Virus genome (UHGV): UHGV-0128348
Reading direction: 5' to 3' (one strand)
DNA: 42,240 bases
Source of the DNA: a virus
In this document: piece by piece, positions 3,284 through 42,240 of the stretch
How positions within the stretch are numbered: position 1 is the first letter of the stretch
Layout of the letters: each line of letters starts with the position of its first letter
Position numbers and translations under genes: made by a program
Notes under the pieces: model-generated
What the model was told of the DNA's origin: nothing
Database searches by the model: none
Seen by the model: the letters and a program-made list of their open reading frames with translations, nothing else

Positions 3284-3729
3284 TTCGCCAGCACCTCATC
3301 GATCGCCTTGTTCATTCTCTCCATCGCTACCTTTGCAGCCTCTTCCTGTCGGGTATCAAAAGCGGGGCGAACAAAAGGATGTGCCGGGGCCGTAGATGTT
3401 CCCAGCTCCACGAAGCGCCAGTAGAAAGCATTCCGCTTGTTGCTGGCCTTCATGGTGTTGTCGCTGTTCCCCGTTCGCGGATTAACGCCACGAATATGCA
3501 CCCCCGACGCGATTTCCCCACGGCGACGGCTTTTCTGGGTAACGACAACAACGTTTTTCTTCAGTTTTCCACTTTGCTCAGGAGCCCGATCAATCACTTC
3601 CTGCCGGAGGACTTCAGCCCCGGCCCGAGTAGAGTCCCGGAGGACTTTGTTGTTTTCGGCTTTGCTGAGGATTTGCAGGTCTCGGGCGATATCCTCTAAG
3701 CCGGAAAAATCCAGATTCACATCAATCAT
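3280..3729 (-). CDS. HK97 gp10 family tail component
   Basis: 149-aa ORF with ...FVRPAFD... motif and canonical position; 4-nt overlap with neighbours. Confidence 0.6.
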   Translation of the reverse strand: MIDVNLDFSGLEDIARDLQILSKAENNKVLRDSTRAGAEVLRQEVIDRAPEQSGKLKKNVVVVTQKSRRRGEIASGVHIRGVNPRTGNSDNTMKASNKRNAFYWRFVELGTSTAPAHPFVRPAFDTRQEEAAKVAMERMNKAIDEVLAK

Positions 3730-4067
3730 TTTTCGGTCCCCTGTTTGCAGAGAATTTCCAGCCGGGTACCTTTGCTATCTGGCACCGGAGGCCCGGTGAC
3801 ATTCAATGTCACTCCTTTGTAGGGACCGTTCAGGACAAGAAGCCGCGATGATGCCGAAATATCTTTGCGATATCGAACCCAGACACGAATTGTAGCATCT
3901 GCCCTTTCTGCTCCTGCTGTCAGGTTCTCTCGTCCACTGATTCCCTTTACCTCTGCCCAGATAGTGGCGCCGTCAGACCACTCTTCTGTTGGCTGACCAC
4001 TCGGTGTTCGCGTAGTAATAAAATTTCGGATGGTGATCCGATGCCGCATTGGTCCAATTTTCATCAT
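3726..4067 (-). CDS. head-tail adaptor / head closure protein (SPP1 gp16-like)
   Basis: 113-aa ORF with ...IRVWVRYR...LEILCKQ... pattern typical of head-tail joining proteins. Confidence 0.6.
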   Translation of the reverse strand: MMKIGPMRHRITIRNFITTRTPSGQPTEEWSDGATIWAEVKGISGRENLTAGAERADATIRVWVRYRKDISASSRLLVLNGPYKGVTLNVTGPPVPDSKGTRLEILCKQGTEK

Positions 4068-4076
4068 CCCCTCCGG

Positions 4077-4415
4077 CTAAACACCCATTTGAATTCGCCA
4101 GGGATTCAGCAACCAGCGTGCGGGTCCTGGGATATCAGGACTCAGATCATCCCCGCGGTTTTCATACAACCAGCCCACTATAAGAAGAACCGCGCTCTGA
4201 ATGGAGGGCGTGATGATAAGAGGACGATCGCCGGCACTTTCATTCTCAACAGCACTATCCAGAGCAGCCTGGTCAGCAAAAAAGCGTCGGTTAAGAAACT
4301 GCATAGCAGCATCCTCCGCAGCGGCAAGATACCCCTCCACCATTGTTTTATCAATTTCATCATCCAGCCTGAGATGTTCCATGGCTGTTTCAGTGTTGAT
4401 TACCGTCATAACCAT
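4077..4415 (-). CDS. gp6-like head-tail connector protein
   Basis: 112-aa ORF ...HLRLDDEIDKTMVEGYLAAAEDAAMQFLNR...; first gene after capsid module. Confidence 0.6.
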   Translation of the reverse strand: MVMTVINTETAMEHLRLDDEIDKTMVEGYLAAAEDAAMQFLNRRFFADQAALDSAVENESAGDRPLIITPSIQSAVLLIVGWLYENRGDDLSPDIPGPARWLLNPWRIQMGV

Positions 4416-4672
4416 TACCCTTTGGTTTCGGGGGCGCGGTTCATTTTGTTATCAGGGACTTCACCAACTATCGTCACCAGCCCGTTACCTTTGAGCTCGG
4501 CAGCACGTAAGCGAGAGACATGAAAAGGATCATCGGCGGGCGTCCTGAAAATATCGCCATCCATAAAACGCCGGACAGGCTGAACCTGAATAGTCCCGGC
4601 TTCAGTGGGTTCTGGCGCCACATTTTTACCGTCGGATACAGACGGTTCAGCCACATTTTTTCTGGCCATCAC
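4415..4672 (-). CDS. hypothetical small protein
   Basis: 85-aa ORF between major capsid and connector genes; no recognisable motif. Confidence 0.35.
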   Translation of the reverse strand: MMARKNVAEPSVSDGKNVAPEPTEAGTIQVQPVRRFMDGDIFRTPADDPFHVSRLRAAELKGNGLVTIVGEVPDNKMNRAPETKG

Positions 4673-4685
4673 AATCTCCTCAGAA

Positions 4686-4712
4686 AGAGAGGGCCGCTAA
4701 GCGGCCCTGAAT
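4686..4712 (-). terminator. terminator downstream of major capsid gene
   Basis: Hairpin GGGCCGCTAAGCGGCCC followed on the minus strand by a T-rich run. Confidence 0.45.
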
Positions 4713-4714
4713 TG

Positions 4715-5935
4715 TCAGCCGCCAGAAGCGGTTACATTACCGGTGACAAATGCTTCCGGACGATAAACTGCTAATGCCAGACGCTCTTCCGCACGAATGG
4801 TGACCATATTTTTAATAAAGTCATCTTCGTTCTCAGTGGAGAGCAGCACTTCGATATCCATGCGATCGAAGATTTGCGCAGCCATGTTGAAGGCTCCAGT
4901 CAGGAAGTTGTTCTGCGCCATAGCCTGAGTTTCCACAACAGGAAGACCCCAGATACGTGGAACACCACCATTGACCGGCTGCGCAATGATGTAGCGGCCT
5001 TCGTTATCTTTGGTCAACTCGATGCCGGCCCAGTCAATCGGGTTCAGTACAAAACCAGACGCCGGATATTCTGCAAGAACGGCCTGCAGAACAGCCAGGC
5101 GAAGACGGTCGATCGGCGTGGCGTTGGACAGGGTAAGCGCTGGAGCAAATTCTGTTGCCTGCGGCAGAATACCGAGGATATTCGCGCCGGTGCCATCGCC
5201 GCTCAACAATTGCTGCTCCTCTTTAAAGCGAAGACCATACTGAGCACGGCCATCGATATAACTGGCCAGACCGGGCGCATCGTCCAGGATCTGACGGGAC
5301 GCTTTAAAATAATGCGCAATGGTACGTACCGGCGCACTTTTCAGCTCAAACTTAATGTCTGATTTTGGCTTCAGGACACCTTCCGCCACAGCTGCAGCAT
5401 TATTGGTAAACCCCGTTTCCTGAACGAATTCAATACCGTTGGATGCAGTATTACCGGGGATCAGCAGGTTACGGATGGTCAGAGTGCGTTCCGGTGGTGC
5501 GATAATGCCCTGAACACGATCGGATACAACCAGACTGTTTGTTGCGCTCACGCCAGTGCCCGTAGTCGCCGGCACGTTCATAATATCTTTCTGTTCCAGC
5601 TTGACGCGGATGCTCTTACGGGCCGAACTGTCCATGCCTTTGAACTCTTCACTTTCGACCACCAGCTCACCGAGCGATTTTCGCTGTGCAGGTGCATCGT
5701 TCGGGCGGCGTGCACCTTTTTGCTCCAGCTCAGTGAGGCGTTCTTTCAGCTCGTTCATCTGATTAAGGCTTTCGTCCGTTCTTTGTTTCAGTTCCAGCGA
5801 AACGGTTTCTCCTGCCTCCATTTTTCTCTTCACGTCTTCACCGAAGTTTTTGACCTGATCAATCACCATGGTGAGCTGGGAGGAGATTTCGCCAATACTT
5901 TGTGGCTGATCGTCAGCCGATTTTTTCTGGTACAT
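4715..5935 (-). CDS. HK97-family major capsid protein
   Basis: 406-aa ORF; N-terminal coiled-coil scaffold-like delta region then capsid-like body; immediately downstream of prohead protease. Confidence 0.85.
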   Translation of the reverse strand: MYQKKSADDQPQSIGEISSQLTMVIDQVKNFGEDVKRKMEAGETVSLELKQRTDESLNQMNELKERLTELEQKGARRPNDAPAQRKSLGELVVESEEFKGMDSSARKSIRVKLEQKDIMNVPATTGTGVSATNSLVVSDRVQGIIAPPERTLTIRNLLIPGNTASNGIEFVQETGFTNNAAAVAEGVLKPKSDIKFELKSAPVRTIAHYFKASRQILDDAPGLASYIDGRAQYGLRFKEEQQLLSGDGTGANILGILPQATEFAPALTLSNATPIDRLRLAVLQAVLAEYPASGFVLNPIDWAGIELTKDNEGRYIIAQPVNGGVPRIWGLPVVETQAMAQNNFLTGAFNMAAQIFDRMDIEVLLSTENEDDFIKNMVTIRAEERLALAVYRPEAFVTGNVTASGG

Positions 5936-7953: not shown

Positions 7954-9690
7954 TCACACAATGATGGGATTACTGAAAAAGTCGTCGATATCGCCAGAAT
8001 CATCCTCATAGCCTTCGGAGGCACCGATTGCCATAGCGCCCGCTACAATGCCGTCGATACGCCCGGTACTTTTTTTCTTGGCAAAAATTCGGTTTTCTTT
8101 CTGATCAGCCTCCGTCACTGCTGAAGCCGCATTCCAGCGAAGACAAGGGTTCGTCCTGATGATAATGACGCTGTCATCAAGCAACTCTTCAAACAATTCG
8201 ATGGAGTGAGGCATCCACAGCCCGGAGTCTTTCGCTTTGTAATACCCTTGCCCATGAGGGATTAAGGGAACAGAAACAGATGCTTCCTCAAGCTCCGGCT
8301 CAAGATATTTAATGCGATACTGGTCGAAGGCGATGGCCTTGATATCAAACTTTTGAGTCAGATCTGCAATGCGCTGGGCAACAAAGCCGTATTTCACTGC
8401 TTTGCCAGGTGTGGTGTGTATGTGACCATCGCGCTCCCAGGCGTCATAAGGTACCCGGTCCGTTTTGGCCCGTTCCAGTAACGTATCTTTCGGGGTCCAG
8501 AACTCCACCAGCAACTTACGTTGTTTTGGAAAAAACAACGCCAGTGCCGTCAAATCACGCGATCCGGACAGGTCCAGACCGCCATAGCATTCCTCACCTT
8601 CCAGTTCATCTGGATCAAAGCTCTCCTCACAACCCATCCAGACATCACTGCTCATCCACGGATTAGCCGCGTCAACCCACTGACAGAAGTTAAGACGTCT
8701 GACGATGCTCTCTTTCGATGGCATCCCGCGGGCCTGAGTCACCTGCTCACGAAGATAGCTTTCTTCAAAGGTGTGACCCAGCGAAGGGTTAGCTTTCTTC
8801 CAGCAGGACTCATCCTTGAAAGGATCGTCTCCTTCATCCAGAGAACAAATGAAGGCAAAAAAGCTGTCATCTTCTATCGAACCGCCAGACACCTTTCGGC
8901 CGTATTCGTGATAGTCATAGCAGACGCTGGTTTTATCGTGCCCACTGTTGGTGATCATGAAAATCAGCGCCTGCCGACGACCTTTGGTACCGGCACGCAT
9001 CATTTCAACGACCTGATTGCTTTTATGCTCGTGAACTTCATCAATAAGAGCACAATGCGGTCGCGGGCCGGACTGCCCGTCATCTGAACTGATTGGACGA
9101 AAGAAGGAACCAGACTGAAGAAAAGCCAGGTTCCATTCCTTACCGGCACCACCTGATTTCTGAATACGTGCGGAAAGAGCTGGAGATTGATCCACCATCG
9201 CAACCGCATCACGGAAAAGGACCATTGCCTGGTCTTTCTTCGTGGCAGCGGCATAAACTTCAGCGCGTGCTTCTTTATCCGCAGTGAGACAGTAAAGTCC
9301 TATACCCGCAGACAGAGGGGATTTACCGGATCCCTTCCCGGACTCCACATAGACCATTCGGAACCGGCGAAAACCTCTGGCGTTTTTCCAGCCAAAAATC
9401 GAACCGACGATGAAGCACTGCCATGGCAGCAACACGAAAGGCTCGCCTTCGAAATCACCACCATTGAGCTTCAGAACTTTCGCAAAATAGTCAATCGAGC
9501 GTTGCGCCGCCTCAACATCCCAGTGCAGACCACGGGCATGGCATGACTTCAGGTCATTGAGATGGCGCTGGCATGAGTTACGGATGTCAGGACCAGCCAG
9601 TTCTTTGCCCGAGGTTACATCCATCGCATATTGGGTTGCAGGATCAACCGAAGAACTTGTCGAGCGTGTCCTCTTCGGGGTCTTCGCCAT
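7954..9690 (-). CDS. terminase large subunit
   Basis: 578-aa ORF; ATPase region (...VESGKGSGKS...) and C-terminal nuclease region; start could alternatively be the internal ATG at 9627. Confidence 0.85.
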   Translation of the reverse strand: MAKTPKRTRSTSSSVDPATQYAMDVTSGKELAGPDIRNSCQRHLNDLKSCHARGLHWDVEAAQRSIDYFAKVLKLNGGDFEGEPFVLLPWQCFIVGSIFGWKNARGFRRFRMVYVESGKGSGKSPLSAGIGLYCLTADKEARAEVYAAATKKDQAMVLFRDAVAMVDQSPALSARIQKSGGAGKEWNLAFLQSGSFFRPISSDDGQSGPRPHCALIDEVHEHKSNQVVEMMRAGTKGRRQALIFMITNSGHDKTSVCYDYHEYGRKVSGGSIEDDSFFAFICSLDEGDDPFKDESCWKKANPSLGHTFEESYLREQVTQARGMPSKESIVRRLNFCQWVDAANPWMSSDVWMGCEESFDPDELEGEECYGGLDLSGSRDLTALALFFPKQRKLLVEFWTPKDTLLERAKTDRVPYDAWERDGHIHTTPGKAVKYGFVAQRIADLTQKFDIKAIAFDQYRIKYLEPELEEASVSVPLIPHGQGYYKAKDSGLWMPHSIELFEELLDDSVIIIRTNPCLRWNAASAVTEADQKENRIFAKKKSTGRIDGIVAGAMAIGASEGYEDDSGDIDDFFSNPIIV

Positions 9691-10108
9691 TCACTTTCAC
9701 CTTCGTCCTTGCCGCTGGCGTCAGACCGAATTCAACCAGGTAACTTTTAAAACGGCGGTCGGCATCGGCCAGCATCGAAACGGCCGGGTTAGCTTTGATA
9801 AGAAAACCACCCTCGGTCTGGACGGTATAGGTTCTTCCCTCTACTGCGATGGTGTCGCGCAACTGAAGAATATCAGCGTAAATATCGCATAGCCGTTCAA
9901 GGGCTAAGGTGTCGGCAACTGTCAACACCCCCATCCCGTCAAGGAGAACAGTCAACCTTCCCCAGGCAACCTTTCCCCAGTCGGTCAGGTGCGCCGGCGG
10001 GCTTGGAATTTCTCGCGCCGGACTCGGTTCTTTATCGTTGAGTTTACGTTTGCCCGGGTTGCCGGAGACCACTTTGAGGTGGGTCGGTTTCGGGCGTCGT
10101 CCTGCCAT
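9644..10108 (-). CDS. terminase small subunit (P27 family)
   Basis: 154-aa ORF MAGRRPKPTHLKVVSGNPGKR...; GGGAGG RBS; overlaps large subunit start. Confidence 0.75.
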   Translation of the reverse strand: MAGRRPKPTHLKVVSGNPGKRKLNDKEPSPAREIPSPPAHLTDWGKVAWGRLTVLLDGMGVLTVADTLALERLCDIYADILQLRDTIAVEGRTYTVQTEGGFLIKANPAVSMLADADRRFKSYLVEFGLTPAARTKVKVNGEDPEEDTLDKFFG

Positions 10109-10289
10109 CGGAACCTCCCGGAAAAAAACTTTTCATTTCGCGGTTGTGCACAAAAAGGATGGGCGGCGGTCATTCAGGTTAGAGGTTCTGAACTTTTGAC
10201 CCGCCCCTCCCCTCAGATGAGAATTAATATCATTTGAATGCTAATTATTTCAATTAGCAATCACTTTTGAGGTGTATTGATAATGGTTA

Positions 10290-10631
10290 TCACTTAAACC
10301 AATGAGAAGCCGGGTCCAGTGGCATCCCGTTTTCATCGCAGCCGATCACGGTGCCACGCTTCTCCATTCGCTGCTTCGTTGAATCGTGGTGCTGCTTACA
10401 CAACCCTTGCCAGTTCTTCCGGCTCCAGAAAAGCTTTTGCGCCTTCGCTATTGCCTGGCTGTCACCAGAGCGCAGAGCCTCTTTCAGTTTGTGCGGGGTG
10501 ATGTGATCAACCACTGTTGCCGCTGTCACCCTGCCTTGCTCCTGGCACATGACGCACAAGGGGTGCGTACGAAGGAAGATAAGACGCTCACGATCCCACT
10601 TGCTGCCGTAAATGCGGGGCTCTTTGTTCAT
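10290..10631 (-). CDS. HNH endonuclease
   Basis: 113-aa ORF with Cys pairs and ...VDHITPH...CKQHHDSTKQ... HNH motif; typical partner of HK97/P27-type terminases. Confidence 0.8.
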   Translation of the reverse strand: MNKEPRIYGSKWDRERLIFLRTHPLCVMCQEQGRVTAATVVDHITPHKLKEALRSGDSQAIAKAQKLFWSRKNWQGLCKQHHDSTKQRMEKRGTVIGCDENGMPLDPASHWFK

Positions 10632-10640
10632 GCTCTGGTC

Positions 10641-10877
10641 CTATTGCTTGGATGGGCGTACGATCCTCATTTGACCGAACAGCGTCTGCCGCTTAACCTC
10701 GCCGTTCTCGACAGTGAAATGACCACAACTATCGTGCACAGCGGCAATCACCACACCTCTATCATCGTCAGCAGAGAAAACGTGCTTTACCTCAACGCCA
10801 TTGAGATAAACCGTGATACGTTCGCGACCAGGTTCGATGCGTTCGCCCGTATCGTCGTCGAGAACTGTCAGGCGCAT
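10641..10877 (-). CDS. hypothetical small phage protein
   Basis: 78-aa ORF upstream of HNH gene. Confidence 0.45.
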   Translation of the reverse strand: MRLTVLDDDTGERIEPGRERITVYLNGVEVKHVFSADDDRGVVIAAVHDSCGHFTVENGEVKRQTLFGQMRIVRPSKQ

Positions 10878-10884
10878 ATTGCCC

Positions 10885-10915
10885 CCAATAAAAAAGCCCC
10901 ACGTAAGCGGGGCTG
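10885..10915 (-). terminator. rho-independent terminator
   Basis: Hairpin GCCCCGCTTACGTGGGGC followed by TTTTTTATT on the minus strand. Confidence 0.5.
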
Positions 10916-11009
10916 ATAATTCGGGTGTGAATGTACTGAAATACTATTTTGGAAAACTGGCTACTTTTTCTATTTCAGTACAGGCTAGTGTCACATAAGG
11001 ATGCTTCAG

Positions 11010-11273
11010 CTATGTATCGTCTCTTTCTGTAGCCTTCATCACATCATCAAAGGCAGCTTCCTCGTTGTCCTCTGGGTCATCATAGCCATACAACTCATTG
11101 ATGCTATCCGGACCGTCTTCGTCGTCTTCGTCTTCGTCGTCTTCTTCTTCTACTTGGGAATCGTCATCTTCTTGAAAATCATCATCTTCTTGAGAATCAT
11201 CATCTTCTTGAAAATCATCATCTTCTTGAAAATCATCATCTTCTTGAAAATCGTCATCGTAAACATTAGACAT
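11010..11273 (-). CDS. highly acidic hexapeptide-repeat protein (candidate DNA mimic)
   Basis: 87-aa ORF MSNVYDDDFQEDDDFQ... with six EDDD(F/S)Q units then an Asp/Glu-rich tail; encoded by 18-bp tandem DNA repeats. Confidence 0.55.
   Translation of the reverse strand: MSNVYDDDFQEDDDFQEDDDFQEDDDSQEDDDFQEDDDSQVEEEDDEDEDDEDGPDSINELYGYDDPEDNEEAAFDDVMKATERDDT
11146..11259. repeat. 18-bp tandem repeat (about six units, TCATCTTCTTGAAAATCA) inside the acidic protein gene
   Basis: Five near-perfect consecutive 18-mers 11164..11253 plus partial flanking copies. Confidence 0.8.
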
Positions 11274-11391
11274 AAATCGCCCTCAATGATCTTCCTCCAC
11301 AATTTTGTGGAACGAAAATCTTAAACCAGAATTGATTAAATAACTATCGCAGCTTAACCAACAGGTGTGTTTGCAATCATCATTTAGCACT

Positions 11392-11598
11392 TTATGGACA
11401 GTTGGCCTTTACTGCTTTGTTAAGCGCCAGAATGTCGCGCTTGGTCTGCTTATCCAGCACATCGATATCGTGGTCAGTCAGGTAGATGATCCGCACCCAG
11501 TTGCAGGCCGTATCAACGACTACTGGGGCGGGTAAATCTTTCGCGCAGCTCGCGATCAACATAGTCATCGCCCATACGCTTAACGTCTTCCTGTACAT
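11392..11598 (-). CDS. candidate o-spanin (outer-membrane lipoprotein, Rz1-like) overlapping the i-spanin 3' end
   Basis: ATG at 11598 inside ORF 11392..11757; MYRKTLSVWAMTMLIASC... has signal peptide and lipobox-like IASC; runs past i-spanin stop in another frame. Confidence 0.45.
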   Translation of the reverse strand: MYRKTLSVWAMTMLIASCAKDLPAPVVVDTACNWVRIIYLTDHDIDVLDKQTKRDILALNKAVKANCP

Positions 11599-11794
11599 CA
11601 CTGGCCCCTTTCGTGACTTCAGCACGGCGTTCTGCCGCGGCGACAGTAGCAGCGGCGTTTTCTTCGGTACGCAGCTGTTCGGCTTTGGCTTCCGCCTTAC
11701 TTGTTCCGCGAGCATGACCGATGCCAAACGCGCCAGCGATAGCGCCCAGAATGACAACCACCAGCCCCGCGATAGCTTCTATTCCCATGATCAT
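11513..11794 (-). CDS. candidate i-spanin (Rz-like)
   Basis: 93-aa ORF with N-terminal TM helix then charged Ala/Glu-rich helical region; directly downstream of endolysin. Confidence 0.5.
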   Translation of the reverse strand: MIMGIEAIAGLVVVILGAIAGAFGIGHARGTSKAEAKAEQLRTEENAAATVAAAERRAEVTKGASDVQEDVKRMGDDYVDRELRERFTRPSSR

Positions 11795-12420
11795 CCCACC
11801 AGTACCGATTTTGCTTTCAGGAAGCGGGCGCGTCGGTCATCAATGCCGTTTTGCCCGCCGTTGATAATCTGGGTCACCCGCAATAAATCTCCGGGGTATT
11901 TCAAACACCCATTTGATGTGTAAAACCATGCTGCGCTGCGTGCCGCATTAATATCTTTCTCCAACAACTCAGGGTTGCTGACTAAATCCAGTTTCAGTGC
12001 ATTACCGCACTTCATATAATTTTCGAGGAAGGTGATCCCGATAATTCCACGCCCTCGGTATTTCCAGCCATCGCCCGCAGCCTTATTGCCAAAACGATTG
12101 TTGTAGACGAGATTAGCGATCGCTCGTTGACGTTCGATCGGTAAAACCTTTTCGTAAGTTTTACGCCCTAAGGTGTTCGCCTGGTCTTGCGTGATGCGCT
12201 TCACCTTCACAAAACCAGCCAGGCCGGCAACGCTATAGTTAAAACTTTCGACCATCTGGGTAAATGATGTGCTTTCGTGTCCACACTGCGCTATGAACAT
12301 CGCCTGATCGAGTGGAGCTGTAATGCCGAATTCTTTCATCGCAGCATCAATATGCGGAAACCAGCGCGCAGCTAACCCGGCGCTGATACCAGCCGCCCTT
12401 TGAAATTGTGATTGGTTCAT
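11791..12420 (-). CDS. endolysin, glycoside hydrolase family 19 (chitinase-like lysozyme)
   Basis: 209-aa ORF with ...CGHES... and ...YRGRGIIGITFLENY... GH19-type motifs; lies in the lysis cassette. Confidence 0.75.
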   Translation of the reverse strand: MNQSQFQRAAGISAGLAARWFPHIDAAMKEFGITAPLDQAMFIAQCGHESTSFTQMVESFNYSVAGLAGFVKVKRITQDQANTLGRKTYEKVLPIERQRAIANLVYNNRFGNKAAGDGWKYRGRGIIGITFLENYMKCGNALKLDLVSNPELLEKDINAARSAAWFYTSNGCLKYPGDLLRVTQIINGGQNGIDDRRARFLKAKSVLVG

Positions 12421-12698
12421 CAGTGCCTCAGTGCATCAACCAGTCGCGCCACATTCCCCCTGAACCAGAGAACCGCGCCGCAGATAAGAATGTTAGCCAG
12501 CACCACCAGCCAGTGGGATGACTCGTACAGACCAAACAGGAAACGGAAAGGGATGCTGGCATAAACCAGCACCATGAGATAAGCCAGAACGGATATGCCA
12601 GGACGGTGTCTCGCACTACCTCGTTGGTAGAACATCAATGCCAGCACAATGACGGCGCAAATGACTGCATTAGCCAGCGCTGAAGGATCATTTACCAC
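12420..12698 (-). CDS. small membrane protein (holin/antiholin-like)
   Basis: 92-aa hydrophobic ORF between holin and endolysin with overlapping start/stop. Confidence 0.5.
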   Translation of the reverse strand: MVNDPSALANAVICAVIVLALMFYQRGSARHRPGISVLAYLMVLVYASIPFRFLFGLYESSHWLVVLANILICGAVLWFRGNVARLVDALRH

Positions 12699-13077
12699 TT
12701 GAACCTCCTCCCCGGAACCGGGTCAGCATATTGAACAAGCTATTTAGATCCTGGCTGTTGAGAAACGTCAGAACTTTGATGATAAGCGCTGATATTAATA
12801 CGGCTCCCAACGCATCAAGCGGACGGTCGCTGTAGCCAGTCCAGCTTGAAAGCTTGGAACCCACCAGACCGGCGCCCAGAACACCAACAATGAATGACGT
12901 CATAAAGTATGCCACCAGCTTACCGCGCGATATGTTAGCTGCCGTGGCCACGTAAAAAACCGCCCCGGCGAACGCACCAAATACCACGCCGTAATCTATT
13001 CCGGTAGCCAGACCGAACATGCTAGCCCCCATCAGGCCGCCGGCCGCAACTGAAGTACCAGAGACAGGATCGGACAT
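12688..13077 (-). CDS. holin
   Basis: 129-aa ORF with about three predicted TM segments and charged C-terminus; first gene of lysis cassette. Confidence 0.55.
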   Translation of the reverse strand: MSDPVSGTSVAAGGLMGASMFGLATGIDYGVVFGAFAGAVFYVATAANISRGKLVAYFMTSFIVGVLGAGLVGSKLSSWTGYSDRPLDALGAVLISALIIKVLTFLNSQDLNSLFNMLTRFRGGGSSGK

Positions 13078-13957: not shown

Positions 13958-13961
13958 GCCC

Positions 13962-13986
13962 AAAGAAAAAGCCCACCGAAGTGGGC
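13962..13986 (-). terminator. rho-independent terminator (minus strand), convergent with previous
   Basis: Hairpin GCCCACTTCGGTGGGC followed on the minus strand by TTTTTCTTT. Confidence 0.5.
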
Positions 13987-14363
13987 CTTACAGCTATCAT
14001 CATTTTTTATTAGGTGTGGTGCCGGGTGCCTCCCGGTGAGCATGCCCCAACAGACATCACTCGCGTGGTATTCACAGGGCTTTCGCTCTATTAGTTGGAC
14101 GCCCCTCCGCATAGGGGGATTCACCACACGGATAATTTAGGATGTAGTCATGGGCGGCGTCAATAACTGACACTCTGTCAAAGGCACCATTACGATGCCT
14201 TTTGCACAGTGCTAATCACTGGCTCTAATAAGGGGCCAGAGCAAAGCGATTACCCCGGCTACCAGCACGCCATCAGCCAGGATTGACATCATTTTGCTGG
14301 TGAAGTCGATAGCAACCACCAGAAACAAAAGCACCCCAGCTGCGGCCCAGCGAAGTTTACCGA

Positions 14364-14948: not shown

Positions 14949-15012
14949 AACAGCATGAAAATAATATGAATAAAAACCAGAACAAAGCAGATCTACTAAA
15001 CCATGTTGTAAT

Positions 15013-16302
15013 TTACAACTCTCGGTAAGCTGGTTGCAAAGCTTCACACCATTGTCTTAAAGTCGAAGCTCTTCGTTTCTTAGTTTTATCGCTAAGCGAT
15101 AAGCACATATCAAACAAAAAAGGCTCCGCCGTTGTGGGATCTAGCTCTGAAAGATTTTTTGCCTGGCTCCATTGTATCCAAGCCCAACCACAATGACTGG
15201 CCTCAAAACCACGAGCCGCAATTCTTAATCTCTTTTCATGATCAGATTCAGCTAATTGTTGTCCCATTGCAGAGATTGAACCATTTTCATTAAGTAAACC
15301 TAGTATTTTACCTGCGTGTATATAGTACAGTATATGGCGAGTATCCAACCCTGTACTAATTAGATCGAGATATATCCCCTTCCATTTTAACTCTACAACT
15401 TTAAAAACTTGATCAATTAAATTTGCTTGGGGCACCTGATAACCGCCAACAACCTGGGCAGACATCTTAGCCAAAGCTGTTGAGTAAAACTCAGCATCCG
15501 TTTTTCGAACCGTTAATACAATCTCATCTGTATAGTTATTTTTCAATTCAAAACTTGAACTTGTATTAACAACAGAGTCAAATAAAGCCGAAAGCATTTG
15601 AACATCAATCTTATTATTTTTAATAAAACTAACTATATCACCCTTAAGACGAATCAGATCATTTAGCTCTTTTAATAACGGCTCTACTGTCTGCATTTTC
15701 TCTGCCTGAAAAGAAAGCACAAAAGATCCAGGGCGACCCGCCACTGGTCGCATCAAGTCCTTTTCATCAAAAGAGTTAATTATAGATGAATATAAGTTAT
15801 TGAAACATTCGAATAATTTAGAAACACCACTTAGTACTAATGGGTCCGTAGATGACTTAGTTTTCTCCACATGTATTTCATGCGTTGAAAACTCAATTGC
15901 CTTGCCTATTTTACCATTAGCTAAAACAGGCAGTACAGAGCTTATAAACAATCCACTTTGTGGCAAAGTCATGTTGTTAGATACTTCAGACGAATCTAAA
16001 GCCAATGCTACAACACGCTCATCCTCATAAAAAATATCTAACTGATAGTATTTCTTTTGTTCTTGGTGCATTAGAACGCTACGAATATCTATTCTTTTTC
16101 TTTCCAAAGATTCTAAGCGTTCAGCAGATATAGGAATGATGATCCACTTTTCGAAGTCATCAAAGTCCCCTAACCAATAAACAACAAAGAGACTATTTAT
16201 CTCATTAGTCACTGAGAAAAATTTTGGACCTTCGAAAAACTCATAGACATTTTCGTATTTTAGTTCACCAAACACGCTGTCTTTAAGGAAGATGTTACTC
16301 AT
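15013..16302 (-). CDS. hypothetical protein, 429 aa, second gene of AT-rich two-gene cassette
   Basis: Long ORF with low GC; 4-nt overlap with upstream gene; no Walker A or other motif I recognise. Confidence 0.65.
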   Translation of the reverse strand: MSNIFLKDSVFGELKYENVYEFFEGPKFFSVTNEINSLFVVYWLGDFDDFEKWIIIPISAERLESLERKRIDIRSVLMHQEQKKYYQLDIFYEDERVVALALDSSEVSNNMTLPQSGLFISSVLPVLANGKIGKAIEFSTHEIHVEKTKSSTDPLVLSGVSKLFECFNNLYSSIINSFDEKDLMRPVAGRPGSFVLSFQAEKMQTVEPLLKELNDLIRLKGDIVSFIKNNKIDVQMLSALFDSVVNTSSSFELKNNYTDEIVLTVRKTDAEFYSTALAKMSAQVVGGYQVPQANLIDQVFKVVELKWKGIYLDLISTGLDTRHILYYIHAGKILGLLNENGSISAMGQQLAESDHEKRLRIAARGFEASHCGWAWIQWSQAKNLSELDPTTAEPFLFDMCLSLSDKTKKRRASTLRQWCEALQPAYREL

Positions 16303-16745
16303 TTATCCAACCTCCTTATACAAACGAATTTGGCATGAACCTGAGATTCGTTGTAAAGCCATATTGTGTAGTGAGTTGAATCAGGAGCTCCAGTTTTTAG
16401 AATAACACCGTCATTAGCTGCAAACTCACCCTGAGCAACAAATCGCTCTCCAATACCATCAGGAAACTTATTAAAGGCATTAATAATTGAATTTTCATCA
16501 GTATAAACTGATACGCCATAACAACATTTTAGCTTATGCCCTTTAAATTTTTTTAATCGTTTAGGATTTTCATCTTTCATATTCAAAAAGCACTGATCCC
16601 CTGGAGGATTTGCCTTTGTAAGACGAAAGAATACACCTGAAGCATCTTGCGCTTCCTTAGGTGGAGTGCCCGCAGGGAAGTCCGCGGGAAACGTTAACGA
16701 TTTTTTATTTTTTGTCGTTTGCTGTGAGATTTGAGTCATGTCCAT
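16299..16745 (-). CDS. hypothetical protein, 148 aa, first gene of AT-rich two-gene cassette
   Basis: ORF preceded by about 300 bp of very AT-rich sequence; no signal peptide; no recognisable domain. Confidence 0.6.
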   Translation of the reverse strand: MDMTQISQQTTKNKKSLTFPADFPAGTPPKEAQDASGVFFRLTKANPPGDQCFLNMKDENPKRLKKFKGHKLKCCYGVSVYTDENSIINAFNKFPDGIGERFVAQGEFAANDGVILKTGAPDSTHYTIWLYNESQVHAKFVCIRRLDK

Positions 16746-17058
16746 AATCCAAGACGATTAACAGAAAAACTGCCAATCACTTTGGTAAATCAGGACAATC
16801 CGTTGGCATTAGATGCAATATAGCAACAAGTAAACACTTCATAAATGCCATTTGGTTATATAAAGAATGACTTAACAACTCCATTTGTTATAAATGCTAT
16901 ATATTGATAGTTGAGCATATTTAGGCACTAAATATGTCCAATTACTGTTAATTGGCTATGTATATATTGAACCTATTCCCCGAGCTCCACATAAGTTCCG
17001 TTTCGTGGAGCCGATACCGACGGTTTTGCACCGGAAGAATCTTCGCGGGAGTATGTAG

Positions 17059-17131
17059 TGCTGGTTGACGGAACTGAACCGCCTACATCCTGCTTACAAG
17101 GCAGGCGCTCTCCCAACTGAGCTAACCCAGC
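17059..17131 (-). tRNA. tRNA-like gene, anticodon UGU (Thr), with non-canonical features
   Basis: Minus-strand cloverleaf: acceptor GCTGGGT, D-arm GCTCAGTTGGGAGAGC, anticodon stem CCTGC/GCAGG with loop CTTGTAA, T-arm GGCGG-TTCAGTT-CCGTC; G6-A67 mismatch; G at position 58; no encoded CCA. Confidence 0.5.
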
Positions 17132-36473: not shown

Positions 36474-36680
36474 ATGCTGAGCCTCGATTGTGTTCCCATC
36501 TCAACTTATTGCAAAGAGACAGGCGAAACCCCTGATGCCATAAATAAGCGCATCCAGCGCGGCGTATGGCGTGAAGGGGTACAGGTGCTAAAGGTCGAAG
36601 GCGTTAAGGAAAGATGGATAGATCTTAGTGAGGTTGCAAAATGGGCTCGACAAAATCGCCTAAACTCCCGCGCGGCGTAA
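36474..36680 (+). CDS. xis: excisionase
   Basis: Small basic ORF directly upstream of and overlapping integrase; start at second ATG with GGAG RBS. Confidence 0.55.
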   Translation: MLSLDCVPISTYCKETGETPDAINKRIQRGVWREGVQVLKVEGVKERWIDLSEVAKWARQNRLNSRAA

Positions 36681-37831
36681 CGATCAGGAAACATAGTACT
36701 GGGGAAACTATCAATATTACCTTTACCTATAAGGGGGTGAAATGCCGGGAACCTTTATCAAACCTTGAAATTAATAGCAAAAACATTAAATACGCCGAGC
36801 GAACACTCGGCGAAATTCACAATAAAATTGAGCGGGGTACATTCAATTATGGTGAACACTTTCCCCGTTCGGCACGACTTAAAATATTTGGTAATTCTTC
36901 AACAGGAAAAACGGTAAAAAATTATCTCGATGAATATCTTGTAATTTGTGAAACGAGAAAATTATCTCCCTCAACAATCGGCGGATATAAGAAATGTTTA
37001 AATGCTCTGGCATCACTTCACGTTTTTCCTGCCAGCGAATTAACACCTGCTGCTTTAAAAACATGGATCCAGAGTCAGAAAACGACATTAAAGACGATTA
37101 GGAACCAACTTTCATTCCTACGCTCAGCACTGGATGAAGCTGTGACTGATGGTGTATTGCAGATTAACCCTGTTTCACTGGTGACAGCCTCGCGCTACCA
37201 GAGTAGTAAAACCGAGGATGAAAGTGATTATATTGTTGATCCGCTTTCGCCAGCCGAGGTTGAAGCGCTTTTGCATGCCGCAGGTAACAAGCAGTGGGAA
37301 AACATATTCCGCTTTGCAATTGAAACCGGGCTACGTAGTTCTGAACTCTGCGCCCTCCGTTGGCGCGATATCGACTTTATCGGCAAAACAGCGCATGTGC
37401 AAAATGCCAGCGTAGTGGGGGTAATTAAGGGCACGAAAACTAAAGCTGGAACACGTAAAGTTGAGTTAACCGAAGAAGCCTTGTATGCCCTGACTTCTCA
37501 GAAGCCTTTCACCTTTATGAAAGATGCAACGATCTTTGAGGATCCTAAGACAGAAAAACCATGGGCGGGTGCCGATGCGATAAGAAAGAAAGCCTGGGTG
37601 CCAACTTTACGTAAAGCTGGGATCAGGTACCGTAATCCATACCAGACCAGGCATACGTTCGCGACCCGACATATAAGTCGTGGCGCTAACCTGTTCTGGC
37701 TGGCATCACAGATGGGACATAAAGGGCCAGAAATGTTGTTCAGGCATTATGGACGCTATCTGAAGGAGTATGACGGCAACACTGAAAAACGACCCAAGCT
37801 GGTCAGCGGTGGAACCTCAAAGGAGCCGTAA
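36641..37831 (+). CDS. int: tyrosine integrase (lambda Int family)
   Basis: 396-aa ORF with C-terminal catalytic region ...RHTFATRHISRGANLFWLASQMGHKGPEMLFRHYGRY...; adjacent att core. Confidence 0.85.
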   Translation: MGSTKSPKLPRGVTIRKHSTGETINITFTYKGVKCREPLSNLEINSKNIKYAERTLGEIHNKIERGTFNYGEHFPRSARLKIFGNSSTGKTVKNYLDEYLVICETRKLSPSTIGGYKKCLNALASLHVFPASELTPAALKTWIQSQKTTLKTIRNQLSFLRSALDEAVTDGVLQINPVSLVTASRYQSSKTEDESDYIVDPLSPAEVEALLHAAGNKQWENIFRFAIETGLRSSELCALRWRDIDFIGKTAHVQNASVVGVIKGTKTKAGTRKVELTEEALYALTSQKPFTFMKDATIFEDPKTEKPWAGADAIRKKAWVPTLRKAGIRYRNPYQTRHTFATRHISRGANLFWLASQMGHKGPEMLFRHYGRYLKEYDGNTEKRPKLVSGGTSKEP

Positions 37832-37889
37832 AGGATCCGCAGCAAAACGCTAAATTTTTTTATCATTGTTTATCATGATGTTATTAAGT

Positions 37890-37925
37890 TTCGGGCGCGG
37901 GTTCAACTCCCGCCAGCTCCACCAA
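37890..37925 (+). other. tmRNA (ssrA) 3'-end fragment = prophage att core
   Basis: TTTCGGGCGCGGGTTCAACTCCCGCCAGCTCCACCA matches the enterobacterial ssrA 3' end as I recall it; upstream sequence is not ssrA. Confidence 0.7.
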
Positions 37926-37955
37926 ACATTCATTCATGATGCATCATGAACCTTA

Positions 37956-37993
37956 AAAAAGCCTGCAACTTCAACGAGTTGCAGGCTTTTTTG
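37956..37993 (+). terminator. rho-independent terminator (probable native ssrA terminator)
   Basis: Hairpin GCCTGCAACT-TCAACG-AGTTGCAGGC flanked by A6 and T6. Confidence 0.65.
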
Positions 37994-38090
37994 TTGCATG
38001 TGTGGTCATGATCTCTGTATGAATCTTGAGCATTATGTATCTTGTTTTGCACCGCGTTGCCTGAACGCTAAAAAAACAAGGTGCAAAAAC

Positions 38091-39338
38091 ATGCCTAAGG
38101 TATTGAAATCCCTAACCAATACCGAGATCGCTGCCGCCAAGCCGCAGAAGACCGAGTATATGCTGCGCGATGGCGACGGACTGGCGTTGTTGATTAAGCC
38201 ATCCGGCAGAAAGATCTGGTACTTCGAATACACTCCCCCGGCGCTGAAAAAACGGACCAAAATCAGCATTGGCCCCTATCCGGTAGTCACCCTCGCCATG
38301 GCGCGAGATTTCAGGTTGCAATACCGGCGTTTACTCGTGCAGGGCATCGACCCGCAGGCCCATCTGGAGCAGGTTGCAGAGGAGCAACGACTCCAGAATG
38401 AATGCACGCTGGAAAAAGTGGCAGAACAGTGGCTCAAAGAGAAAAAACGGACCAGCGATCTTAGCGAAGATCACGCCAAAGATGTCTGGCGCTCGCTGGA
38501 GATGCACGTCTTCCCTTCTCTGGGTAATACACCCGTTACCGAGATCCGTCCCAAAATGCTCAAGGAACACCTTACACCGCTGGAAGAACAGGGCATCCTC
38601 GAAACGCTGCGGCGGGTTATCTCACGACTCAATGAAATCTTCCGCTTCGCCATCTCCGAAGAGCTTATCGAGTTTAACCCAGCAGACAACCTGGTCGCCC
38701 GCTTTAAGAAACCGAAAAAGCAGAATATGCCCGCCCTTCACCCCAGCGAGCTGGGCAGGCTGATGCTGGCGCTATAGAACGCCTCTATCCGCAAGGAAAC
38801 CCGCTGCCTTATCGAATGGGAGCTACTGACCTGGGTTCGCCCCGGCGAAGCCGTCAGCGCCCGCTGGTGCGACATCGATATGAAAAAAGCGGAATGGCGC
38901 ATCCCCGATACTTTTATGAAGATGAACCGTTCGCACACGGTGCCGCTCAGCAAACAGGCGCTGCGCGTTCTTCAGGTTATGGAGCCCGTCAGTCGCCATC
39001 GCCCGTGGGTTTTCCCCAGTATCCGCAAACCACTGGAGCATATGCACCAGCAGACCGCGAACGCCGCGCTTATCCGCATGGGGTTCGGCGGCGAACTGGT
39101 CGCCCACGGCATGCGCAGCATCGCCAGGACCGCAGGAGCAGGTCATTTTCCCCGTGAAGTCCTGGAATCTGCGCTAGCACACCAGAAAGAAGACGAGATC
39201 GAAGCGGCCTACAACCGCAGCGACTATCTGGAACAAAGGCGACCGCTGATGCAGTGGTGGGGAAACTACGTTGATGCTGCCAGACGGCAGGCATTGCTCG
39301 GTGAAGAAGAACCGCTGCGGATCGTGGAAGGAGAATAA
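38091..39338 (+). pseudogene. P4-type (IntA-like) integrase interrupted by one in-frame TAG
   Basis: ORFs 37998..38777 and 38880..39338 share a frame; the frame is open across 38778..38879; only stop is TAG 38775..38777; N-terminus MPKVLKSLTNTEIAAAKP..., C-terminus ...YNRSDYLEQRRPLMQWW... Confidence 0.7.
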
Positions 39339-39339
39339 T

Positions 39340-39984
39340 GTGACCAGTCCCATTCGTCAGAATCTGTTTGAACGGGAATGCGATATGCCGCTGCTGGAAG
39401 CGCGGCATCTCGCCCTTCTGCTTCTCGGCCTTGATGCTTCCCAACCTGCAAACGCCCTACCGGAAGAACATCAGGAGAATTACCGTATCCTGCACGACGC
39501 CATCAGCCGCACCATCAAAGCCACAGGCATGGTCAGCGCCCCTGCAAACAAACGTATGTTCTATGCCGATGAGATGTTCGCGCTGGCCTGGCGGCTTATT
39601 GATGACGAACTCACGCCGCCAGAAATTAAGGCCCGCAGCCTGAAGGCGGTGATGAAACTGTCGCGTAACGGTCGTGGTCGCAAGTGGCTGAAGACGCTCG
39701 GCGACGACGCGCTACCGGATCTCACTGCTTCCGCACAACCTTCCCAGCGTGGAATGTATAAGCGCGACAAAGCGCGGGAGAATACTGCCCGACTCTGCTG
39801 GCTACTGGTTCAGCTACTGGTTGAGGAGACTGACGGACGGTATGGGACGTATGATAAACCAGCTTCGGATCGGATACTTCGAAAGCTGAAAATGCTGGCG
39901 CAGGAGCGGGAATTGCCGTCGGATGGGCTTGGACGGGGGACGTTTTATGAGGTGTTGAAGATGGGGCGGGTGAAGAAAGTGTAG
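39340..39984 (+). CDS. hypothetical protein
   Basis: ORF 39271..39984; likely GTG start 39340 with GGAAGGAG RBS just after integrase stop. Confidence 0.45.
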   Translation: MTSPIRQNLFERECDMPLLEARHLALLLLGLDASQPANALPEEHQENYRILHDAISRTIKATGMVSAPANKRMFYADEMFALAWRLIDDELTPPEIKARSLKAVMKLSRNGRGRKWLKTLGDDALPDLTASAQPSQRGMYKRDKARENTARLCWLLVQLLVEETDGRYGTYDKPASDRILRKLKMLAQERELPSDGLGRGTFYEVLKMGRVKKV

Positions 39985-41424: not shown

Positions 41425-42240
41425 TTACTCCACAAGCGGGATAAGCTTTTTACCCGTATCTTCGAAGAATGAAAATGAAGCCCAGCGATATGTATATACC
41501 AAAGCAATCTTGCCAGAATGTGCCTCAATAACTTCTTTTAAATATGACTTACGTTTGCTGCCATCTGGAAATTTAGCCGAAAAGGTCACTATTGCTCGTG
41601 ATGATAGTCCGCCACCATTTCGCATAAAGAGAATAAAATCACTCCCTCTAAACACATTAAACTCCGCGCAATTTGTCACATCATTATCAAACTTAGCAAC
41701 TACATTTTTTATTTTGTCATAGAGGCTAACCATATCCCCAAAAATATTTCCATCTGCTAACTGAATATTTCTTTTATTTAACTCGGCTATATACCCATCA
41801 TCATTAACTTTTCCAATCGGGTATCGTGCCTGAAGTACTATATCTTGTGACGCAATTTGCAATAGCTTCAATTCGTCAACGGTTAATGCCAACTCCAAAT
41901 CAATAGCCATCCTATCAATCTTATGACCATAATCGCGAAACTTAAGATCTATCGTGTCTTTTTGCGCACCAAGATTCATTAAAAGAATCGCAGACTTTAA
42001 CAGCATTTCGAAAGCATACCCCAACATAAGCCTGCTTGTTTTATCTGTTGCTGATGCGATATCGATATATTCATGCACAACGGGAGATTTCTTACTTGTA
42101 GCCAGAAACAAGCTCTTGTTTCGATCACCTTCACTTCTCAAAAGCTTTGCTGATAAATACAGCTTTTTGGACTCTGTTAACCAAGCCTTACGATCAAAGA
42201 TACCTTTTCCATTTTTCTGCGTAATTATTTCGCTCTGCAT
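41425..42240 (-). CDS. AT-rich hypothetical protein (start at or beyond window end)
   Basis: 271-aa low-GC minus-strand ORF whose first ATG is at the window edge. Confidence 0.5.
   Translation of the reverse strand: MQSEIITQKNGKGIFDRKAWLTESKKLYLSAKLLRSEGDRNKSLFLATSKKSPVVHEYIDIASATDKTSRLMLGYAFEMLLKSAILLMNLGAQKDTIDLKFRDYGHKIDRMAIDLELALTVDELKLLQIASQDIVLQARYPIGKVNDDGYIAELNKRNIQLADGNIFGDMVSLYDKIKNVVAKFDNDVTNCAEFNVFRGSDFILFMRNGGGLSSRAIVTFSAKFPDGSKRKSYLKEVIEAHSGKIALVYTYRWASFSFFEDTGKKLIPLVE

Follow-up and report, generated by a model that had tools for sequence, protein, structure and literature searches.

A single amber codon in the integrase gene of an ssrA island of Klebsiella michiganensis, very probably a recent loss-of-function allele

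Two adjacent open reading frames behind a remnant of the tmRNA gene ssrA each resemble part of one tyrosine integrase, and a TAG codon separates them. Is the integrase of this genomic island a gene that was disabled recently, or is the stop decoded so that the full-length enzyme is still made? We analyzed the locus in a window of 42,240 nt, meaning the whole stretch of DNA under study, and compared it with related loci (numbered with the prefix L) from public sequence collections.

One integrase gene with one internal stop

Translation of 38091-39338 on the plus strand gave 416 codons with a lone internal stop, TAG at 38775-38777 (codon 229), and a terminal TAA at 39336-39338. An earlier note, made from the sequence alone, had described two ORF pieces in the same frame, with the frame open across the gap between them and this TAG as the only interruption. 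Both the translation and the ORF list, in which the N-terminal piece starts further upstream (ATG at 37998), agree with that description. Pfam searches of the read-through translation identified Arm-DNA-bind_3 at residues 8-93 (E 1e-22), Phage_int_M at residues 108-201 (E 8e-24), and the Phage_integrase catalytic domain at residues 216-379 (E 5e-20), which make up a three-domain architecture of arm-binding, central (core-binding), and catalytic domains. The catalytic domain spans the amber codon, which falls 13 residues into it. Searches by sequence in the PDB matched CP4-like integrases in their arm-binding and central domains.

We considered whether the pieces could be two separate genes or otherwise not collinear with a single integrase, as the earlier note had allowed. 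This was ruled out by the Pfam domains and by the intact 415-aa orthologues, which align with the window integrase from end to end with zero gaps. A random frame of 415 codons would contain many stops and homology is found on both sides of the TAG, which places a single interrupted gene far beyond chance.

The family was assigned with the NCBIfam model NF007246 (PRK09692, an IntA-type model), which matched residues 3-403 of the version of the protein with Gln at position 229 (P0031) at 457.2 bits against a cut-off of 434. IntA of CP4-57 from K-12 shares 49% identity with the window integrase over 405 residues. The description of the gene as IntA-like is thus correct at the family level; because the identity is only 49%, the integrase represents a distinct lineage within the IntA family and not the CP4-57 gene itself. 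The catalytic set (R250, K277, H339, R342, H364, and Y374) was named by motif, not by structure, from the R-K-HxxR-H-Y pattern of tyrosine recombinases. All six residues are kept in the alignment with K-12 IntA. Because the frame, uninterrupted in functional integrases of the IntA/CP4-57 type, here contains a TAG at codon 229, we filed the gene under this family as a pseudogene and not among its functional members.

The integrase gene marks the edge of the island and follows ssrA directly on its 3' side. In prophage-free strains the order is smpB, full ssrA, and the integrase, which starts ~166 nt past the ssrA end, and from this order we conclude that the lambdoid prophage of the window entered ssrA in front of an older island. 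The ssrA remnant forms the right side of the inserted prophage and the left junction of the older island, and no complete tmRNA gene is found in the 42,240-nt window. At position 37895 the remnant has G, as do prophage-bearing loci, versus A in the ssrA of prophage-free strains; this G is probably phage-derived, with the crossover to its right. The hairpin between the remnant and the integrase is probably the ssrA terminator, in which case transcription of the integrase would have to start from a separate promoter beyond the hairpin. The consensus terminator scan omits this hairpin because its loop is above the allowed size. A consensus scan of 37800-39400 for sigma-70-like promoters gave none and was uninformative.

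Two further features were observed within the prophage. A low-GC block (36-37%) at 15000-17131, adjoining the tRNA-Thr(UGU) gene, contains a gene for a 429-aa DUF6575 protein (15013-16302, minus strand) and a 148-aa ORF without a family match; the block resembles a moron or an accessory insertion. At 13958-14152 on the minus strand, the sequence matches the Rfam model of STnc100, a gammaproteobacterial sRNA (96 bits against a gathering score of 47).

Table 1 Features of the window, in order of position
Feature	Position	Strand	Basis or remark
Lambdoid prophage	~1-37831		Best match Klebsiella phage Kp4866-6, 95% identity over 68% of the query
tRNA-Thr(UGU), in prophage	17058-17131	-	
Prophage integrase, intact, of another family (Arm-DNA-bind_2)	36641-37831	+	Pfam
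ssrA (tmRNA) 3' remnant, last 36 nt (positions 328-363 of E. coli ssrA)	37889-37924	+	blastn against K-12 ssrA, 35/36
GC-rich hairpin, GCCTGCAAC ... GTTGCAGGC, then a T-run	37961-37993	+	Read from the sequence
IntA/CP4-57-type tyrosine integrase gene, filed as pseudogene, 415 codons with one amber codon inside	38091-39338	+	Translation, Pfam, NCBIfam, orthologues
N-terminal ORF, 228 aa, ending at the amber codon	38091-38777	+	Pfam domains
Amber codon TAG, codon 229, next base A	38775-38777	+	From CAG (Gln) by one C>T at 38775
Arg250 codon (motif WVRPGE), first catalytic arginine	38838-38840	+	Motif
C-terminal ORF, 152 aa, from Met264	38880-39338	+	ORF list, motif positions
orf214, GTG start 1 nt past the integrase TAA	39340-39984	+	Gene calls in related loci; phrog_30524 match (unknown function)
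Abi_alpha-family protein, candidate anti-phage defence	40257-41048	+	PADLOC PDC-S47
orf271, cargo of unknown function	41425-42240	-	

Origin, spread, and age of the stop

Codon 229 is TAG in ten loci, which come from isolate genomes, metagenomes, and Logan assemblies. The 1248-nt gene is identical to that of the window in nine independent loci from NCBI, ENA, and Logan, and the tenth (L004, an NCTC assembly) differs by one extra T. Public assemblies contain the exact 228-aa product in 84 index blocks; it was seen on 37 contigs and bears the depositor names Klebsiella michiganensis and Klebsiella sp. OBRC7. The exact 152-aa C-terminal product was found on 42 contigs. The earlier note had asked whether the TAG at 38775-38777 could be a sequencing or assembly error. 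Beyond the single-base nature of the difference, nothing speaks for such an error. The identical TAG in independent isolate, metagenome, and Logan assemblies, with no sense codon among them at this position, and the wide occurrence of both products leave it next to no probability, and we consider it ruled out.

The amber allele is present both with the upstream prophage (five loci) and without it (four loci), and is therefore independent of the prophage. Judged from representative places, it accounts for about half of the 24 island-carrying contigs that were read. The extra T of the NCTC assembly (L004/L079, GCA_900452635.1, contig UGNA01000004.1) lies in the T-run at 39010-39013 and shifts the C-terminal frame on top of the amber codon; it could be a real second lesion or a homopolymer error. 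A 98-aa C-terminal fragment (P0020) was considered as a marker of a second lesion in the amber clade and rejected, being common to unrelated frameshifted alleles. The alleles sharing it sit in other islands, and the amber codon and the extra T are combined only in the NCTC assembly. In the homopolymer at ~39007-39017 (GGGTTTTCCCC; integrase nt ~917-927), single nucleotides were independently gained or lost in three alleles that are unrelated, namely L079/L004 (+T), L083 (-1), and L012 (-1); the run is either a slippage hotspot or a recurrent site of assembly error.

The earlier note attributed a sense codon at the position of the TAG to the homologous integrase, and every orthologue that we examined outside the amber clade has one, which is Gln (CAG or CAA) wherever the frame is unshifted. 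CAG was found in eleven loci, CAA in three, and CAC in two (L081/L082), both of which are themselves frameshifted. CAG is the codon in Citrobacter sedlakii (99% protein identity), C. youngae, Kluyvera sp., Raoultella ornithinolytica, and others, and CAA that in E. coli. Three loci (L072, L076, and L077) contain the exact Abi_alpha cargo of the amber strains, yet have CAG and an intact 415-aa gene at the same locus, and their protein equals the read-through translation of the window with Gln at position 229. The core flank of L072 is ~99.5% identical to that of an amber strain, and the CAG carriers with the same island cargo apparently include strains of the same species. The intact Q229 protein (P0031) was found on 20 contigs of the public collection. 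Versions of this protein with one of the six further residues that a single-nucleotide change of TAG can encode (K, E, L, S, W, or Y) at position 229 were absent from the collection.

By outgroup comparison the stop is derived. We searched for its direct ancestor, the window haplotype with CAG, using a 51-nt pattern with Y at the mutated base, and found none in scans of JGI metagenome and viral contigs. The JGI metagenomes gave one match, an allele of the E. coli type that is more divergent and combines CAG with a separate amber codon at codon 210; the viral contigs gave zero.

The pattern of substitutions points to a recent origin of the stop. The intact and amber alleles differ at 50 nt, of which 49 are synonymous and one is the C>T (dS = 0.195, dN = 0). 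With six further sequences as outgroups, 16 changes were assigned to the window allele alone, among them the amber C>T at gene position 685. They comprise 15 synonymous, 0 missense, and 1 nonsense change, a 15:0 ratio that predates the stop or is inseparable from it. Under neutrality ~77% of changes would be expected to alter the protein, and the probability of 0 missense in 15 is ~3e-10. This ratio on the window branch places the origin of the stop at the very tip of the branch. The amber carriers are 0-3 SNPs apart in 13 kb, which fits a young clade. Within the integrase gene they show 0 differences, the NCTC extra T aside, an invariance that carries no power on selection after the stop. We also observed a strongly AT-biased spectrum on this branch, with 12 of the 16 window-specific substitutions, the amber C>T included, being GC>AT transitions.

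Consequences for the integrase and competing readings

After the TAG there is no in-frame ATG, GTG, or TTG in 38778-38879, and the first restart is Met264 at 38880, before which we saw no Shine-Dalgarno-like sequence on reading the sequence. R250 falls in the gap between the amber codon and Met264. The N-terminal 228 aa contain the arm-binding and core-binding domains and the first 13 residues of the catalytic domain, without the active site. The C-terminal 152 aa keep K277, H339, R342, H364, and Y374 and lack R250. With R250 located between the stop and the first restart, neither fragment is a complete recombinase. A derived premature stop thus removes essential residues, and no restart restores them. 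We infer, strongly, that recombinase activity is lost and, as a reasonable extension, that the island is immobilised.

Very probably, the integrase gene of a small CP4-57-like ssrA island in Klebsiella michiganensis has recently lost its function through a nonsense mutation and become a pseudogene. One C>T would have converted Gln229 (CAG) to an amber codon. Translation would then end past the arm-binding and core-binding domains, and the catalytic domain would not be made as a unit. Its own integrase would then neither excise nor integrate the island, which would be inherited as a fixed chromosomal block comprising orf214, Abi_alpha, orf271, the Mrr-like nuclease, AlpA, and the primase/helicase. 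Counting against a pseudogene, the AlpA and primase genes are still full length and the rest of the island is without visible decay. Of the two possibilities raised in the earlier note, that of a very recent nonsense pseudogene is borne out by the derived C>T, zero missense changes relative to the intact allele, and carriers that are invariant in the gene. The other, dependence on amber suppression, gained no support from a stop found in one clade, a window without a suppressor tRNA, and varied lesions in relatives.

These lesions are diverse and arose independently. L078 has an independent amber codon at codon 210, L012 has two stops and two deletions (frameshifts), L051 has a 13-nt deletion, and L080-L085 have 1-, 7-, and 64-nt indels. 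Truncated forms of the integrase were found on hundreds of Salmonella and K. pneumoniae contigs.

If the amber codon were decoded, by a suppressor tRNA or efficient programmed read-through, a full-length integrase would be produced at a low, regulated level. In favour of this, preservation of the downstream part is perfect (zero missense changes versus the intact allele), the amber allele is common in carriers of the island, and the TAG is followed by A, a context that does not give the strongest termination. However, recency fully explains this preservation in carriers so closely related, and the stop is limited to one near-clonal clade; it is not conserved outside the amber clade, and no other examined locus, orthologous or paralogous, has a stop at codon 229. 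No suppressor tRNA (CUA anticodon) was found in the 42,240-nt window, where the sole tRNA is tRNA-Thr(UGU). Relatives are disabled by frameshifts and deletions, which are beyond repair by a suppressor, and one amber carrier, the NCTC assembly, also has the frame-shifting extra T. A decoded stop is thus very unlikely.

Rare read-through would have a particular outcome here. When E. coli without a suppressor reads through UAG spontaneously, the residue inserted is Gln, according to the part of PMC8954436 that cites Nilsson & Ryden-Aulin 2003. As Gln is the ancestral residue, which also fits a decoded amber codon, the rare read-through product would be the wild-type protein. The amber allele may therefore be slightly leaky and not a strict null, as a result of ordinary translational error and not of a decoding mechanism. 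A stronger version is an attenuated allele, in which near-cognate read-through by tRNA-Gln yields trace integrase and very low excision while the abundant 228-aa fragment competes at att sites; we consider this very doubtful. If it were true, the high frequency of the allele would reflect selection for a defence island that is stabilised, not irreversibly fixed, at an ssrA gene that excision can damage.

The 228-aa product could also have been retained for a new role, as an occupier of att or arm sites that blocks recombination at ssrA or as a regulator. It consists of two complete DNA-binding domains with its own start and presumably its own promoter, the allele is frequent, and Salmonella has many truncated integrases of about this size (229-254 aa). 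There is, however, no evidence of fragment-specific selection, and the scattered truncation points in relatives (codons 93-104, 210, ~247, and ~307) fit random decay better, so that a retained function is most improbable.

Island cargo and related systems

A nonsense pseudogene in the leading gene of the island could also affect the gene behind it. orf214 is a conserved partner of the integrase and comes behind it in all the island variants seen (L080-L088), regardless of their cargo. It had no Pfam, NCBIfam, or PADLOC match. It is probably co-transcribed with the integrase, and its expression may be lowered through polarity of the upstream stop. In related loci the region past orf271, which lies beyond the window, encodes an Mrr_cat nuclease, AlpA, and a 689-aa DUF927 primase/helicase. 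The island order in these loci is integrase, orf214, Abi_alpha, orf271, Mrr_cat, AlpA, and DUF927 primase, followed by a sorbitol-type PTS operon. In the 13 kb that follow ssrA, neither an amber locus (L074) nor a locus with an intact integrase (L072) showed a convincing second copy of the ssrA 3' end that would mark a distal att site and with it the right end of the island. The island resembles CP4-57 and P4-like integrative elements carrying defence cargo.

We observed mosaicism at several levels when comparing these two loci. At locus positions 9000-13000, orf214, Abi_alpha, orf271, and the Mrr-like nuclease are 100% identical between the amber and intact lineages, whereas in the island backbone the integrase differs by 4% and AlpA and the DUF927 primase by ~6%. 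This suggests that the defence cassette was lately exchanged between diverged island backbones by homologous recombination. The core flank is ~99.5% identical save for a 5-9% divergent patch over recN (locus positions 3500-5500), and past the island (beyond 16000, the sorbitol-type PTS operon included) the identity is only ~89%. The ssrA neighbourhood is a recombination mosaic. Within the integrase gene, the arm-binding domain (38091-38390, codons 1-100) occurs in two versions that differ at ~100 of 300 nt, one in the window and C. sedlakii and the other in E. coli, Kluyvera, and C. youngae, while the rest of the gene is highly conserved. This pattern indicates domain-level mosaicism in the integrase family.

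Among known systems, IntA (SlpA) of the cryptic prophage CP4-57 in E. coli K-12 is located at the same site as the window integrase, directly 3' of ssrA, with its start ~170-200 nt past the tmRNA end. The two proteins (413 vs 415 aa) share the same three domains and the same NF007246 model, and in both islands an AlpA gene is found a few kb downstream. Unlike CP4-57, the window island carries Abi_alpha, an Mrr-like nuclease, and a DUF927 primase as cargo, and its integrase is interrupted by the amber codon. The closest comparisons are two orthologues at the same locus. WP_001125947.1 from E. coli 118UI, annotated as 'integrase domain-containing protein', is intact in the same arrangement (smpB-ssrA-int-orf214) with DNA 89% identical, and P0031 (MULTISPECIES Enterobacteriaceae) is the window protein with Q229. 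Both differ from the window in having CAG or CAA at codon 229 and an uninterrupted frame.

Decayed integrases are typical of cryptic prophages and islands at tRNA and tmRNA genes, tandem arrays at ssrA included. K. Williams has reportedly worked on traffic at the tmRNA gene. As in tandem ssrA arrays, the window has a newer prophage before an older island, a short ssrA remnant between them, and an inactivated older integrase. Nothing essential sets the window apart from other decayed island integrases, except that it is a very young case with one lesion only. The locus thus appears to be a standard case of an island integrase decaying at a tRNA/tmRNA site, with a newer prophage in front of it and only the first lesion acquired. 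Gene inactivation of this kind is known, and both fragments are already in public databases, annotated as integrase pieces. Our literature search on the ssrA island in K. michiganensis found nothing specific.

In K-12, overproduction of AlpA induces excision of CP4-57, which leaves ssrA defective (PMC10107115). Since excision can damage ssrA in this way, a host that loses the integrase of an ssrA island could be unaffected or could even benefit, which for the window island is speculation. The two ORF pieces are best annotated as one integrase pseudogene. The CAG/TAG polymorphism at codon 229 can be used as a lineage marker, and strains with the amber and CAG codons form a natural pair for asking whether the integrase drives excision at ssrA. 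In the amber clade of Klebsiella michiganensis the island should be treated as probably non-excising. With one lesion only, the locus would offer a clean, datable case of the first step in the fixing of a genomic island.
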